The notes under the pieces were generated by a model. The model was not told the DNA's origin. It did no database searches and saw only the letters and a list, made by a program, of their open reading frames with translations. A stretch of 52,473 nt of DNA from a virus (taxonomy: Duplodnaviria; Heunggongvirae; Uroviricota; Caudoviricetes), in the IMG/VR virus record IMGVR_UViG_2541047750_000003, positions 1 through 52,473 of that record, one strand, 5' to 3'. Positions 7,760-43,185 of the stretch are shown here, in pieces. Position numbers and translations under genes: made by a program. Position 1 is the first letter of the stretch. Each line of letters starts with the position of its first letter.

Positions 7760-8064
7760 CGCATTTTCTCCTATGGTTAGAGTGAACGCGCGGGCGGGCA
7801 TCCCATTAGCATTAGATAGCAGTGACTGACCGCTCAACAGATCCCGCCGTTGCGTGATATTTGTTTTTCGCTTCGCAGCGACACCGGATTTTTAAAGAGC
7901 ATAAGGTAAGTGCCTTTTTGTGCCTTCCGTTATCTTTTTCCTTGCGTCTTTGCAAGTATGGCCTTACCTTGTCTGCAAGTTTACAAAATGGAATTTTAAA
8001 ATCAAGGCTTAAAATACACGTTTTGTGACTTGCATCAAACTTTTTGAGGTTATAGGGTAGCGAC
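7760..8064. promoter_or_regulatory. divergent immunity control region between cI and the minus-strand early operon
   Basis: 305-nt gap between divergent genes; contains TTTACAAAATGGA (7980-7992) and inverted AAGGTAAG/CTTACCTT arms; promoters and operators not resolved. Confidence 0.45.
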
Positions 8065-8742: not shown

Positions 8743-8835
8743 GCCTGGAAAACACCAAAACGTAAACAGAAAACGTTATTTATTATTTAAATATCAATGG
8801 CATATAAAATATTTTAAAAAAGTATACAAAATGGA

Positions 8836-8864
8836 TTGACTCGATGTTTTACGGGGCGTATATT
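8836..8864 (+). promoter_or_regulatory. sigma70-like promoter (pL-equivalent)
   Basis: TTGACT, 17-nt spacer, TATATT; TACAAAATGGA motif abuts the -35. Confidence 0.5.
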
Positions 8865-9118
8865 GCGAGTCAAAGGAAGGGCGCAGGTAACAAAAGCAAC
8901 TTCCTGGCACTTTAAAAATCAGGCTTAACACCTTGTCAACCGTGGAGTAACTCCCCGATGGGGGACCGAAAGCGGCACTGATAACAAGGCGCATGGGGTG
9001 TTTAAAGCGTTACATCCCCCACGAAACCGCACGCAAGGCGACGAGTCAGCTTGCTTGGAGTGAGCAAGGTCACGCCGGGAACGGCGATGATTGCGGGATT
9101 AGTTGAAAGATGTTAAGC

Positions 9119-9212: not shown

Positions 9213-9503
9213 ATGAGCGTTACAATTATATATGGTAAATGTGATAGCAAAATGAATGCCAGGGAACGCAGAAGGATAAAAAGAGAAAACGAAAGAAAAT
9301 CATCACCTGCAATCAATAAAACAGACAATGTGGATAAAGCTATTCGATTTGCAAACGAGGAAAGATGCAAACCAAATAGCATTAAAGAACGTCGCAAAGG
9401 ATCAGTAAAATGGTATACGGAAAATGAAAGCGGCAGCTACTACCACGCAACGCAACCACGCCATTTAGGGGAAAAACCCCTGGATAAAGTCCGCTACCAT
9501 TAA
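9213..9503 (+). CDS. N: N-type transcription antiterminator (arginine-rich motif)
   Basis: 96 aa; MSVTIIYGKCDSKMNARERRRIKRENERK resembles the recalled P22 N (gene 24) N-terminus and ARM; first gene after promoter and leader. Confidence 0.65.
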   Translation: MSVTIIYGKCDSKMNARERRRIKRENERKSSPAINKTDNVDKAIRFANEERCKPNSIKERRKGSVKWYTENESGSYYHATQPRHLGEKPLDKVRYH

Positions 9504-15728: not shown

Positions 15729-16489
15729 GCGGGCTTAGAAATTGGGTTATCTGGTCGCTGTACGACGGAAGCGGGTACGCCGTTAAAGATTGGGCGGAAG
15801 CTGGTTATAAATGCTATTGCTTCAACTATGACGGCGCTAATCACGGGGATTATGACGGGGTAAAAATAATTCATCCAAATATTGAATATGTTAACGTATG
15901 GATTGACAGCCATTTCCTGGTAATGTTCTCCCCTGAATTGTCTGTTTATCCAGATCCTGACATTATCTTGGGCTTTCCTCCATGCGACAATCTCGCCGTT
16001 TCAGGCGCTCGCTGGTTCGCTGATAAACGGAAAAAAGACCCTGACTTCCAGGTGAAGGCGGCGCATAACGCAAAACTGGTAGAAAAACTGGCGAATATGC
16101 ATAACGTGCCGTGGATGGTGGAAAATCCGGTGGGCGCACTGTCAACGTTATGGCGTAAACCGGATTTTATCTTCAATCCGTGCGCTTACGGTGGCTACCT
16201 GCCGGAAGATGATAAGCATCCCGCTTTCCCGGAATACATTGCCGACCGCGACGCCTACACGAAGAAAACTTGTATTTGGTGCGGGAATGGATTTAAGCAG
16301 CCGCTATTCCGTCCTGTGCCGATGCCAGATGAATGGGAAGACAGTAAGCAGCACGCGAAGTTAGGCGGAAAATCAAAGCGAACAAAGATGATCCGCTCAC
16401 TAACGCCGCGTGGCTTCGCCCGTGCTGTATTCCTGGCTAACGACCGGGCCATCAATCGTACTACGCTCAACCGCGTTTTGCCGGACTGA
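15725..16489 (+). CDS. short C5-cytosine DNA methyltransferase-like protein (254 aa)
   Basis: Motif I-like SLYDGSGY, motif IV-like GFPPCDNLAVSGAR (compare GFPCQxFSxAG), motif VI-like VENPVGAL. Confidence 0.45.
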   Translation: MSGLRNWVIWSLYDGSGYAVKDWAEAGYKCYCFNYDGANHGDYDGVKIIHPNIEYVNVWIDSHFLVMFSPELSVYPDPDIILGFPPCDNLAVSGARWFADKRKKDPDFQVKAAHNAKLVEKLANMHNVPWMVENPVGALSTLWRKPDFIFNPCAYGGYLPEDDKHPAFPEYIADRDAYTKKTCIWCGNGFKQPLFRPVPMPDEWEDSKQHAKLGGKSKRTKMIRSLTPRGFARAVFLANDRAINRTTLNRVLPD

Positions 16490-16511
16490 AGTTTACAAAA
16501 TGGCGTCATTG

Positions 16512-16527
16512 TGTGATGAATGTCACA
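16512..16527. promoter_or_regulatory. CRP-consensus-like palindrome TGTGA-N6-TCACA
   Basis: tgtgatgaatgtcaca matches both CRP half-sites; lies between inverted TACAAAATGG motifs upstream of the NinG operon. Confidence 0.35.
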
Positions 16528-16648
16528 TAATGGCGCTTTGCACCTTGTTAGCACGTATCCATTTTGTATACTTCAAGCAAACAAAATGCTCTTTAAAAAT
16601 CCGGCAGCGCTGAAATGCGTAGAAATCACCTGAAAAGGAGAGAGCATT

Positions 16649-16825
16649 ATGCCTTTTGATAATTACCAATGGCATGACGACTATGAACGAGAAAGCGTTA
16701 TGCGTGCAATGTGCAATGTATGCAGCACGAAGAAAGGAGGCTGTAACGAGTGCAACGAATGCTTAGAACATTGGCTAAGGGCCGGACACGCCGAAAGGCT
16801 GAACGAAACAGAGAATCAAAAATAA
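16649..16825 (+). CDS. small Cys-rich (zinc-binding-like) protein (58 aa)
   Basis: MPFDNYQWHDDYERESVMRAMCNVCSTKKGGCNECNECLEHW...; AAAGGAGAG RBS; below track cutoff. Confidence 0.45.
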   Translation: MPFDNYQWHDDYERESVMRAMCNVCSTKKGGCNECNECLEHWLRAGHAERLNETENQK

Positions 16826-16839
16826 TCGGGGTGGTTTTT

Positions 16840-17445
16840 ATGCAAAACCCTAAAAAACCCATAAGACGCCGTTGCAAGTGCTGCGGCGTTTTTTTTGAGC
16901 CTAAATATCATAATCAAACGTGGTGCAGCGATGAATGTCTGGAAGAACTGAAGTTTGACCAGCTATGCCGCGACCGTGAAAAGGCTATGAAGGCTATGGA
17001 ACGGAAGAAACGCCGCGATAGCCAGCGGGAAGAACGCAACCGGAAGCGGAAACAGTTAAATCCGCGCAGCTACTGGATCAAGCAAGTTCAAAACGTATTC
17101 AACGCCTATATCCGCGAACGTGACGCGCGCTTGCCGTGTATATCCTGCGGGACTTACTACGGTGAGCAATGCGGGTGGGATGCGGGCCATTACAGGACGG
17201 TTGCCGCCGCAGGACACCTTCGCTTTAACGAGGATAATTGCCATAAACAATGCAGGCACTGCAACCAGACATTAGACGGAAACATAGGAGGGTATCGCCC
17301 GGCGCTAATTCGAAAAATTGGCCTCGCCATGGTGGTAGCTCTGGAGAACAACAACGATACGCATAAATGGACGATTGCAGAATGTAAGGAGCTAATAAAC
17401 ATCTATCAGGCGAAATTGGACGCCTTAAGGAGAAAGGTAGCATGA
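16840..17445 (+). CDS. ninG: NinG/Rap-like recombination protein
   Basis: Start refined from track ORF 16750; RRCKCCGVFF...WCSDEC and CISCG...GHYRTVAAAGHLRFNEDNCHKQCRHCN match the NinG Cys/His pattern. Confidence 0.7.
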   Translation: MQNPKKPIRRRCKCCGVFFEPKYHNQTWCSDECLEELKFDQLCRDREKAMKAMERKKRRDSQREERNRKRKQLNPRSYWIKQVQNVFNAYIRERDARLPCISCGTYYGEQCGWDAGHYRTVAAAGHLRFNEDNCHKQCRHCNQTLDGNIGGYRPALIRKIGLAMVVALENNNDTHKWTIAECKELINIYQAKLDALRRKVA

Positions 17446-18338
17446 ATAATTGGCATGATATATTTGAATACGACAACGGTTTTTTATATTGGAAGGGAAA
17501 GAAAGGAAAGTGTAACGCTGGTGATTTGGCTGGTTGCATCCATAAAAATAGTGGTTATTGGGTTGTTCGTGTTAACGATAAATTACATAAAGTACATAGA
17601 ATTATATGGGAAATGCATAACGGACCAATTCCGAAAGGATGCGAGATAGATCATATTTGGCACAACAGAAATGATAACAGGATAGAAAATTTACGCCTTG
17701 TTACTCATAAGCAAAACGGAAGAAATCAGGCAAAACCAAAAAATAATAAAAGTGGGCAGCCTGGGGTTCATAAACTTTCTAACGGATACTATAGAGCGGA
17801 AATATGTGTTAATGGTAAAAATGTGTATCTTGGTCAGTTTGATAATTTTGAAGATGCAGTGGATGTCAGAAAAAAAGGAGAAAAAAAATATTGTTTCCAT
17901 GAAAACAATGGTGTAAGCAAGGAGATTTTGATGCGTGAATTTGAATTCACGTTACCCTGGGCACCATCGGTTAATTCTTATTACGGCAACAATAAAAGGG
18001 GTAGTAAGTATGTAACAAACAAAGGCAAGGATTTCCAAAAAAAAGTCAAAGAAATAATAGAATCACTAAAACTTGATCTTAATATTGATTTTAATGTTTC
18101 CGTTTATATATATGTAGCGCCACCTACACTACGCCCACACGATATTGATAATTGCTTAAAAGCAATATTCGATAGTCTTACTTACGCTCATTTTTGGGTT
18201 GATGATAGGCAGGTTTTTAGTCTTAAGGTTGTAAAGTGCCATAAAATAAAAAACGGCCAGATATTCGTAAAAGTGAAAGAACATTCAGGGGTGTTACCTG
18301 ATATTAACGAATATATTCAGAATTATTGGGAGGTGTGA
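17442..18338 (+). CDS. HNH endonuclease (with AP2-like segment) fused in frame to RusA-like Holliday junction resolvase
   Basis: N-terminal half: HNH motif EIDHIWHNRNDNRIENLRLVTHKQN plus GVHKLSNGYYRAEICVNGKNVYLGQFDNFEDA; C-terminal half: RusA-like LPWAPSVNSYYG...HDIDNCLKAIFDSL...WVDDRQV; markedly AT-rich N-terminal half. Confidence 0.6.
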   Translation: MNNWHDIFEYDNGFLYWKGKKGKCNAGDLAGCIHKNSGYWVVRVNDKLHKVHRIIWEMHNGPIPKGCEIDHIWHNRNDNRIENLRLVTHKQNGRNQAKPKNNKSGQPGVHKLSNGYYRAEICVNGKNVYLGQFDNFEDAVDVRKKGEKKYCFHENNGVSKEILMREFEFTLPWAPSVNSYYGNNKRGSKYVTNKGKDFQKKVKEIIESLKLDLNIDFNVSVYIYVAPPTLRPHDIDNCLKAIFDSLTYAHFWVDDRQVFSLKVVKCHKIKNGQIFVKVKEHSGVLPDINEYIQNYWEV

Positions 18339-20005: not shown

Positions 20006-20211
20006 AAAAAGCTGGCCTGTCAATTAGCCGTGTATTGTGCGGCGACGAAAACGAGATCCGCATAGAAATTAAATTTAGCATGGGTAAAGAGATAATTCTT
20101 TACACGACACCTGAAAACATGACGCTGGCGCTTACTGGTAAATCTGAAACGCCGTGCGACGTCCGGTTACGCAATATTGAAATTAAGGAATTAAGGAAGG
20201 GTGAAAAATGA
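20002..20211 (+). CDS. hypothetical protein (69 aa)
   Basis: ATGA coupling. Confidence 0.4.
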   Translation: MKKAGLSISRVLCGDENEIRIEIKFSMGKEIILYTTPENMTLALTGKSETPCDVRLRNIEIKELRKGEK

Positions 20212-38244: not shown

Positions 38245-38307
38245 TATACAAAATGGAGTCGTTGTAGCAAAGACATTTTGTATAAAATAGATACACAGAT
38301 CACAAAA
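38245..38307. promoter_or_regulatory. divergent regulatory region with inverted TATACAAAATG/CATTTTGTATA and the 14-mer CACAGATCACAAAA
   Basis: 11-bp inverted repeat arms at 38245-38255 and 38274-38284; 14-mer at 38294-38307 identical to 50344-50357. Confidence 0.5.
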
Positions 38308-43132: not shown

Positions 43133-43167
43133 CCATTTTGGTATGATTTAGCGTGACGCAGATCACA
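43133..43167. promoter_or_regulatory. divergent regulatory region with CCATTTTGGTA and CAGATCACA elements
   Basis: Partial copies of the motifs seen at 38274-38307 and 50317-50357, ~20 nt upstream of the L-like ATG. Confidence 0.4.
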
Positions 43168-43185
43168 GAATGACAAGGTGAGAAA

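Follow-up and report, generated by a model that had tools for sequence, protein, structure and literature searches.

A stem-loop between the methyltransferase and ninF-like genes

The 52.5-kb window analyzed here (the whole stretch of DNA in IMG/VR record IMGVR_UViG_2541047750_000003) belongs to the Nus-dependent temperate coliphages of the mEp021 / mEpimmI group. Over 5.5 kb it is 87–94% identical to MagusPhagus, mEp554, mEp013, mEp010, mEp044, mEp515 and mEp021. A 159-bp gap separates its cytosine-methyltransferase-like gene from the ninF-like and ninG genes, and this gap is the site of a palindrome that contains TGTGA-TGAATG-TCACA (16512–16527), with exact cores of both CRP half-sites (16512–16516 and 16523–16527). 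A first-pass annotation, made from the sequence alone, had described the two cores with their 6-nt spacing, the motif TTTACAAAATGG at 16492–16503 and its inverse CCATTTTGTATA at 16559–16570 on either side, and a location upstream of a Cys-rich small open reading frame (ORF) and ninG. The sequence and coordinates are exactly as it gave them, the Cys-rich ORF encodes 58 amino acids, and the NinG protein encoded 3’ of it matches PF05766 (E = 4.5e-66). The same locus, taken as 191 nt, was found as part of a prophage in 35 of the 5,426 complete genomes of E. coli; the copies in strains UMNK88 and 09-00049 are 99.5% identical to it.

The CRP-like sequence is the tip of a longer palindrome (16503–16536) that begins 14 nt past the methyltransferase stop codon (TGA, 16487–16489). 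RNA of the + strand can form 15 consecutive pairs here, three of them G-U. For the nine pairs that lie beyond the CRP core, the chance expectation in a fixed register is about 0.375^9 = 1.5e-4. The + strand of 16485–16650 folds at -56.5 kcal/mol (z = -6.2), as compared to z = -3.0 for the - strand. Folded alone in 30 variants, the hairpin has a mean free energy of -20.9 kcal/mol on the + strand versus -12.7 on the - strand, and 29 of the 30 lie between -15 and -26 kcal/mol.

The corresponding element of the sister phage mEp021 is the predicted terminator t4 with nutR2 (Valencia-Toxqui et al. 2023; Negrete-Mendez et al. 2025, PMC11893012). It is 91.6% identical over 191 nt and likewise stands between genes for a cytosine methyltransferase and a NinF-like protein. 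In GenBank (MH706966) the mEp021 hairpin is annotated as ‘terminator TERM_4; score=79’ (20087–20120), and a third nut site, nutR2, has been placed downstream of the methyltransferase gene (PMC11893012). This annotation and the placement of nutR2 identify the palindrome as t4, 50 nt upstream of the published nutR2. Both t4, as a prediction, and nutR2 are therefore already in the mEp021 literature; t3 and t4 are predictions there, while t1, t2 and t5 were demonstrated (PMC11893012). The same paper makes no mention of CRP or cyclic AMP (cAMP) and describes no promoter before nutR2.

Conservation was assessed among 34 distinct IMG/VR and phage versions. The loop (16518–16521) is hypervariable and reads GAAU, GUGG, AUGG, ACGG, GCGG, ACAG or others. 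Both stems are conserved, including six nucleotides on each side that lie outside the CRP-type 22-mer, and so is the TTT that comes next. This conserved stem with its TTT directly adjoins a freely varying stretch (16537–16556). Conserved stems around a variable loop are the pattern that would be predicted for a stem-loop under selection. A search of the entire window against Rfam found nothing above the gathering thresholds, and none of its families matched 16380–16760 at E ≤ 1. The outermost stem of the single-sequence fold (16487–16492 paired with 16570–16575) was set aside; it is poorly kept and is broken in up to 11 of 33 sequences.

A CRP-type site and a promoter-like module upstream of nutR2

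An exact TGTGA-N6-TCACA occurs once in the 52.5 kb, and four occurrences with at most one mismatch are found where 1.39 are expected. The 22-mer at the hairpin apex, TTGTGTGATGAATGTCACATAA, was scored with a symmetrised CRP position weight matrix (PWM) built from 16 classical sites; the bit scores are approximate. At 17.9 bits it is the best match in the window, exceeds all training sites (7.3–16.6 bits), and outscores the best match of 100/100 mononucleotide and 300/300 dinucleotide shuffles of the window. Versions from relatives score 17.2–20.2 bits (about 50 distinct sequences). The first-pass annotation had named a low score against the extended 22-bp matrix, together with a lack of CRP-dependent expression, as grounds for giving up its CRP proposal, and the score obtained is not low. 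GTGA and TCACA are kept in essentially all of the roughly 50 sequences, with T or C at 16512 and a hypervariable center; most carry CGTGA on the left (23 of 33 distinct sequences). Conserved half-sites around a variable center are equally what a hairpin predicts.

Four sites in the window reach at least 16 bits versus 0.06 expected, a number attained by 0/300 shuffles, and all four (8021, 16509, 43149 and 50336) lie in regulatory gaps. The site in the pL region, AAGTTTGATGCAAGTCACAAAA, stands 15 nt before TTGATT-N16-TAAACT and shares the architecture of the 16509 site without the hairpin extension. At 43149 all 32 variants carry both half-sites unchanged around a variable spacer, and no meaningful hairpin can form from such short arms.

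Downstream of the palindrome lies a promoter-like module, TTGTTA-N16-TATACT, with 9/12 hexamer matches. The gap from the 22-mer to the -35-like hexamer is 14 nt, as at lac P1. The center of the site (16519.5) falls 25.5 bp before the start of this hexamer and at about -59.5 to -61.5 from the predicted start, which itself lies about 8 nt before the nutR2 boxA. Essentially all of the 56 distinct sequences retain the 14-nt gap, with variable sequence inside it. The 16-nt spacer is found in 52 of the 56, the rest being three artefacts of the regular expression and one 15-nt case. TTGT and TATACT are invariant, as is the 3’ half of the spacer, CCATTTTG, whereas its 5’ half (16550–16556) is variable. 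The right arm CCATTTTGTATACTT comprises this 3’ half together with the -10-like hexamer. The stretch from -35 to -10 has relatives elsewhere in the window: it aligns with the pL region (score 28, reached in 1/500 shuffles) and with an element at about 38270–38244 on the - strand that precedes a secreted-protein moron gene (score 27, 0/500 shuffles). With a start near 16579–16581, the order of promoter then nut would occur three times, as pL-nutL, as pR with a candidate nutR1, and as this module with nutR2.

Among the closest known arrangements is lac P1, a class I promoter with a CRP site centered at -61.5, 14 nt between site and -35, and an 18-nt spacer. The phage locus resembles it in its perfect TGTGA-N6-TCACA cores, in a PWM score at or above that of classical sites, and in the identical 14-nt gap. 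The weak core hexamers also fit, because an activator-dependent promoter is expected to have them. Unlike classical CRP sites, the putative phage site lies inside a 34-nt hairpin-forming palindrome; its promoter spacer is 16 nt rather than 18, and most relatives have a CGTGA left core.

The boxA and boxB of nutR2 were placed by comparison with nutL. The closing pair of boxB changes from G-U to A-U in four relatives and, on both sides and thus in compensatory fashion, to C-G in prophages of RM9245 and E21845; the compensatory change supports the boxB assignment. The boxA with its flank, TGCTCTTTAAAAATCCGG (16587–16604, and 7901–7884 on the - strand), has identical multi-copy counterparts in Salmonella, Dryocola, Buttiauxella, Cedecea and others. 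A boxA-pattern scan of genome contigs returned mostly multi-copy enterobacterial loci, with scattered chance matches. The multi-copy matches are most likely the boxA of rRNA (rrn) operons, and the identity suggests that the phage nut sites mimic the antitermination signal of host rrn operons. Further downstream, the strong terminator-like hairpin in the 5’ coding part of ninG (16870–16888) is probably a terminator for nutR2-modified polymerase to read through, and would be the obvious obstacle to polymerase without the modification.

Two side observations concern the nut sites. A candidate nutR1 boxA, GCACTTTAAAAATC, is found at 8907–8920, about 37 nt after the predicted pR start (TTGACT-N17-TATATT, 8836–8864) and upstream of an N-like gene with an arginine-rich motif (ARM; 9213–9503). 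In the consensus fold, the boxA region CAAAAUGCUCUUU (16582–16594) pairs with the Shine-Dalgarno (SD) and AUG region of the ninF-like ORF (16639–16653), and the changes seen in this pairing are wobble-preserving only. Loading of Nus factors and Gp17 at boxA could in this way be coupled to translation of the first gene.

Features of the junction and related elements elsewhere in the window.
Feature	Position	Strand	Remarks
Cytosine-methyltransferase-like gene, 254 aa	15725–16489	+	Final gene of tightly packed early-right cluster
Word copy A, TACAAAATGG (left arm)	16494–16503	+	15 nt identical to pL-region copy (- strand reading)
Hairpin, 34 nt, 15 bp, 4-nt loop	16503–16536	+	From fold; t4 / TERM_4 of mEp021
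CRP-consensus 22-mer TTGTGTGATGAATGTCACATAA	16509–16530	Strand-neutral	Hairpin apex; PWM 17.9 bits
Short U-tract	16537–16540	+	UUU here, UUUU in most relatives, then C/G; overall 3–5 U
-35-like hexamer TTGTTA	16545–16550	+	TTGT(T) is an invariant island in hypervariable 16537–16556
Word copy C, CCATTTTGTA on + strand (right arm)	16559–16568	-	In promoter spacer, overlaps -10; nearly invariant
-10-like hexamer TATACT	16567–16572	+	16-nt spacer; invariant in all relatives; predicted start ~16579–16581
Third ACAAAATG copy	16581–16588	+	Overlaps boxA 5’ end; alternative hairpin with 16560–16567
nutR2 boxA TGCTCTTTAAAAA	16587–16599	+	Identical to nutL copy 7901–7889(-)
nutR2 boxB hairpin GCGCU-GAAA-UGCGU	16607–16620	+	Placed by nutL comparison
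Cys-rich ORF, 58 aa, NinF-like	16649–16825	+	SD GGAG at 16637–16640; ‘putative NinF’ in mEp021
Strong terminator-like hairpin with T8	16870–16888	+	In ninG 5’ coding part; ARNold T7 at same place in mEp554
CRP-like site AAGTTTGATGCAAGTCACAAAA	8021–8042		pL region; 16.3 bits, class-I-like distance
CRP-like site	43149–43170		Upstream of tail gene L; at least 16 bits
CRP-like site	50336–50357		Regulatory gap; at least 16 bits; right half alone conserved
9-mer copies	1041, 3997, 5136, 7982, 8825, 9504, 12938, 16494, 16560, 22896, 30623, 38247, 38274, 40781, 50319		

The repeated word and neighboring genes

The first-pass annotation had described the CRP-like palindrome as nested between two inverted motifs. 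These arms are no frame made for the CRP-like site; they are copies of a word found throughout the genome. The 10-mer TACAAAATGG has eight exact copies and 23 with at most one mismatch, versus 5.96 ± 2.46 expected, and 0/100 shuffles reach 23. An unbiased k-mer count puts its 9-mer core, CATTTTGTA/TACAAAATG, ahead of all other 9-mers in the window, with 15 exact copies versus about 0.4 expected. The copies are mostly intergenic (enrichment P = 2.5e-5, on a crude gene map), and inverted pairs stand between divergent genes at 38247/38274 and 50318/50351. The 15 nt of copy A, CCATTTTGTAAACTT in - strand reading, are identical to the copy in the pL region, and the only 16-mers common to the pL and pR regions contain the word. 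Elsewhere it abuts a -35, as at pR (8826–8864) and at a pR-like leftward element (43141–43103). Because the word occurs in both orientations and between divergent genes, a regulatory role at the DNA level is suggested.

Several identities for the word were considered. A plain core-promoter element was rejected, since the word stands in either orientation and, depending on the module, overlaps the -10 or adjoins the -35. A role as the Rep021 operator is not supported, given a word without dyad symmetry that also occurs in the promoter-like element of the secreted-protein moron. A check by eye against IHF, Fis, OmpR, TyrR, PhoP and CpxR consensus sequences gave no convincing match. PMC11893012 contains no description of a repeated TACAAAATGG word. 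A 138-kb contig that has one 19-mer in common with pL proved to be unrelated AT-rich sequence, most likely a chance match.

The word’s distribution recalls the stoperators of mycobacteriophage L5, in which many copies of a short asymmetric repressor site lie in intergenic gaps. The phage word, likewise short and asymmetric, has more than 15 copies, which cluster in short gaps between genes of the early and late regions. In contrast to L5, its orientation is not tied to the direction of transcription, and it also occurs in promoter-like modules, including that of a probable moron.

Two leftward elements were noted as well. A leftward promoter from copy A (TAAACT, 16494–16489) was dropped as a main reading because its -35 would be ATCACA or ATCACG, with 3–4/6 matches. 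A terminator-like hairpin lies at 16401–16377 on the - strand, about 80–110 nt beyond copy A in the leftward direction. One can conceive of a short antisense transcript over the 3’ end of the methyltransferase gene, but the -35 is poor. The element at 43141–43103 on the - strand reads ACCAAAATGGATTGATC-N17-TATATT, close to TACAAAATGGATTGACT-N17-TATATT at pR (8825–8864), and faces a small - strand gene cluster between tail genes; these genes are probably morons.

Among the neighboring genes, the methyltransferase homologue is labelled ‘putative DNA cytosine methyltransferase’ in mEp021 and likewise in RefSeq prophages. The product in the window has no Pfam match, and a scan of genome contigs with this protein as query returned no relatives. 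Beyond the Cys-rich ORF come the genes for NinG, an HNH-RusA protein and a Q-type antiterminator. The RusA resolvase gene (17442–18338) encodes 298 aa, in which an HNH_3 endonuclease domain at the N terminus (residues 50–94) is fused to RusA (173–278), as compared to only 135 aa for the mEp021 resolvase. The gene may represent an HNH homing-endonuclease insertion or a fusion. Two prophages, in strains RM9245 and E21845, have another small gene after nutR2 and keep the hairpin, the promoter-like element, boxA and boxB. This retention before a different gene shows that the module moves independently of the ninF-like ORF.

A proposed operon junction and its alternatives

We tentatively read the locus as the junction of two transcription units in the early-right arm of a mEp021-type (mEpimmI) temperate coliphage, at which one palindrome would be both an RNA hairpin and a CRP-type DNA site; we put the chance that this is right a little short of even. 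In the rightward RNA, 16503–16536 would fold into the 15-bp hairpin followed by 3–5 U, that is t4, which would close the methyltransferase cluster and stop or slow polymerase not modified by the N-like protein Gp17. In the DNA, the hairpin apex would present a CRP-type site 14 bp before the -35-like hexamer of TTGTTA-N16-TATACT. This pL-like internal promoter would start its RNA about 8 nt before the nutR2 boxA. Transcripts from it would load Gp17 and Nus factors, would therefore pass the ninG terminator, and would reach Q. The inverted TACAAAATGG arms would be two copies of the phage’s commonest regulatory word, the right one forming part of the promoter module. From the features described above we infer that RNA ends at the hairpin, that the module acts as a promoter, that CRP binds, and that expression may depend on cAMP.

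A number of observations weigh against this proposal. On the RNA side, the U-tract of t4 is short and fails a simple terminator rule (at least five T in eight), and ARNold gave no call for the hairpin in mEp554 and its relatives. A C.A mismatch is present at 16512/16527 in 23 of 33 distinct sequences. Covariation was sought among the 34 IMG/VR and phage versions, four divergent E. coli prophages and 17 metagenome copies, the last of which added only wobble-type single changes. In the hairpin and the outer stem, 0 pairs were changed on both sides and shuffle controls were flat; the family is 88–100% identical, and covariation is uninformative because there is too little divergence. On the DNA side, E21845 has TTACA instead of TCACA, which would make for poorer CRP recognition and keeps a G-U pair. 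The matrix was rebuilt from 16 classical sites, and its scores are approximate. With its sequence TCACATAATGG, the right half-site is at the same time one of the variants of the repeated word, so part of the likeness to CRP sites could be a by-product. The sites at 43149 and 50336 stand at odd distances from predicted promoters, and among the further sites a class-I-like distance is found only at 8021. Promoter-like matches of 9/12 are frequent by chance, with six found versus 2.8 ± 1.7 expected per 2 kb. Finally, in mEp021, polymerase from pR is said to read through to nutR2, with no internal promoter needed.

One alternative is that the palindrome is an RNA hairpin only, namely the t4 stem-loop acting as a terminator, pause or 3’-end stabiliser, with an incidental resemblance to CRP sites and with nutR2 reached only from pR. 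We regard this as unlikely, though still deserving serious weight. It agrees with the read-through model as it is reportedly published, with the predicted-terminator annotation in mEp021, and with the layout in PMC11893012. Conservation of the whole stem and the TTT beyond the CRP cores, the consistently greater stability of the + strand, and the change in E21845, which keeps pairing while breaking a CRP core, all fit as well. Even so, the U-tract is weak, and a hairpin alone leaves as coincidences the highest PWM score in the window, the lac-like 14-nt gap to conserved -35 and -10 hexamers, an equivalent site at a pL-type module that has no hairpin extension, and the excess of four CRP-like sites over 0.06. 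The converse, in which the locus is DNA only, a class I CRP-activated internal promoter whose hairpin is a by-product of a long palindromic protein site, accounts for the PWM rank, the conservation, the lac-like spacing and the freedom of the central 4–5 bp to vary, as in CRP sites. CRP makes no base-specific demand on 16503–16508 or 16531–16536, yet these segments can pair with each other and hardly vary. Conservation extends to the TTT that follows the stem, the imperfect positions of the palindrome are mostly G-U on the transcribed strand, and the strand asymmetry of the fold is left unexplained. We consider this view quite improbable.

Improbable, to a slightly lesser degree, is that the DNA site is read by a phage-encoded regulator other than CRP, possibly the same factor that would read the word ACAAAATG(G). 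The locus would then hold five alternating word-like copies, A at 16494(+), B’ at 16506(-), B at 16523(+), C at 16559(-) and D at 16581(+), and the ‘CRP palindrome’ would be the tail-to-tail junction of B’ and B. Copies B, GTCACATAATGGCG, and A, TTTACAAAATGGCG, agree at 79% over 19 nt, and the abundance of the word, its intergenic enrichment, its inverted pairs between divergent genes and its presence in every 16-mer common to pL and pR point the same way. At 50336 the right half and the word alone are conserved, and the operators of Rep021 are undefined in the literature. Set against this, Pfam shows only a CI-like repressor and sub-threshold winged helix-turn-helix matches as candidate binders, the word has no dyad symmetry of its own, and in their fit to the CRP consensus the sites equal the best natural CRP sites. 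A simple repressor operator also fits poorly with a word whose position and orientation relative to -35 and -10 vary and which recurs in the promoter-like element of the secreted-protein moron. An RNA switch or processing site, finally, would have the 3’ arm CAUUUUGUA pair either with 16494–16502, closing a structure around t4, or with 16581–16588, and so control access to boxA or make an RNase III-type substrate. Both pairings are predicted, and the single A-to-G changes at 16497/16498, 16581/16583 and 16561 each leave a wobble pair in place. Double compensations and Rfam matches were not found, however, and the outer stem is broken in several sequences (L027, L009/L026) and, at 16491, in 11/33. 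The occurrence of the word in both orientations and between divergent genes speaks for a role in DNA, and we hold the switch to be very improbable.

If the proposed junction is wrong, the element is the already predicted t4 hairpin, an ordinary finding. The new points, drawn from in silico analysis and all of known kinds, are the CRP-grade site, its geometry, the pL-like module before nutR2 and the genome-wide word. The first-pass annotation had suggested that cAMP-CRP or a dimeric phage regulator could control this segment. The suggestion is partly supported and is a livelier hypothesis than before, in view of the PWM score, the lac P1 geometry and the four sites versus 0.06 expected; what it overlooked is that the palindrome extends into the longer hairpin t4 and that nutR2 lies 50 nt downstream.

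Comparison with better-known phages places the proposed junction in context. Like lambda, with its tR2–tR4 that N-modified polymerase passes, this phage has terminator-like structures in the nin region upstream of ninG, rusA and Q, together with an N-like antiterminator, Nus dependence and nut sites made of boxA and boxB. Lambda has two nut sites and none in the nin region, whereas this phage has a third after the hairpin, with a promoter-like element between hairpin and nutR2; its hairpin is also without a canonical U-run. Control of a coliphage by host CRP has a precedent in T1, where cAMP-CRP was shown experimentally to repress several promoters directly (pir, dam and recE; PMC6737242). The likeness lies in host CRP at several coliphage promoters, a link to carbon status, with four strong CRP-like sites in regulatory regions here. 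In T1 the effect is repression, whereas the site positions in this phage suggest activation at two of them.

Host cAMP control of this phage segment is plausible from the arrangement of sites. A broader proposal, which we consider doubtful, is that mEpimmI phages have a small CRP regulon, with consensus-grade sites at lac-like distance before pL and before a third, previously unrecognised early promoter firing into nutR2. Under such a regulon, host cAMP would act as a gate on the leftward replication operon as well as on the ninG-rusA-Q segment, the phage group would have a reason for its third nut site, and the palindrome at the nutR2 locus would have been lengthened to form the terminator hairpin for the operon before it.

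The proposed junction would itself account for the odd published third nut site, 7–8 kb downstream of nutR1, in that nutR2 would serve transcripts from its own promoter and not just polymerase from pR. If the reading is right, one palindrome at an operon junction can be both a hairpin and a protein site, and annotations that assign such an element a single role may be incomplete. For mEpimmI, a recently defined and gut-prevalent group of coliphages, the carbon status of the host, through cAMP-CRP, would be tied to the segment that encodes the Q antiterminator and to pL, and would constitute a new input into the choice between lysis and lysogeny.

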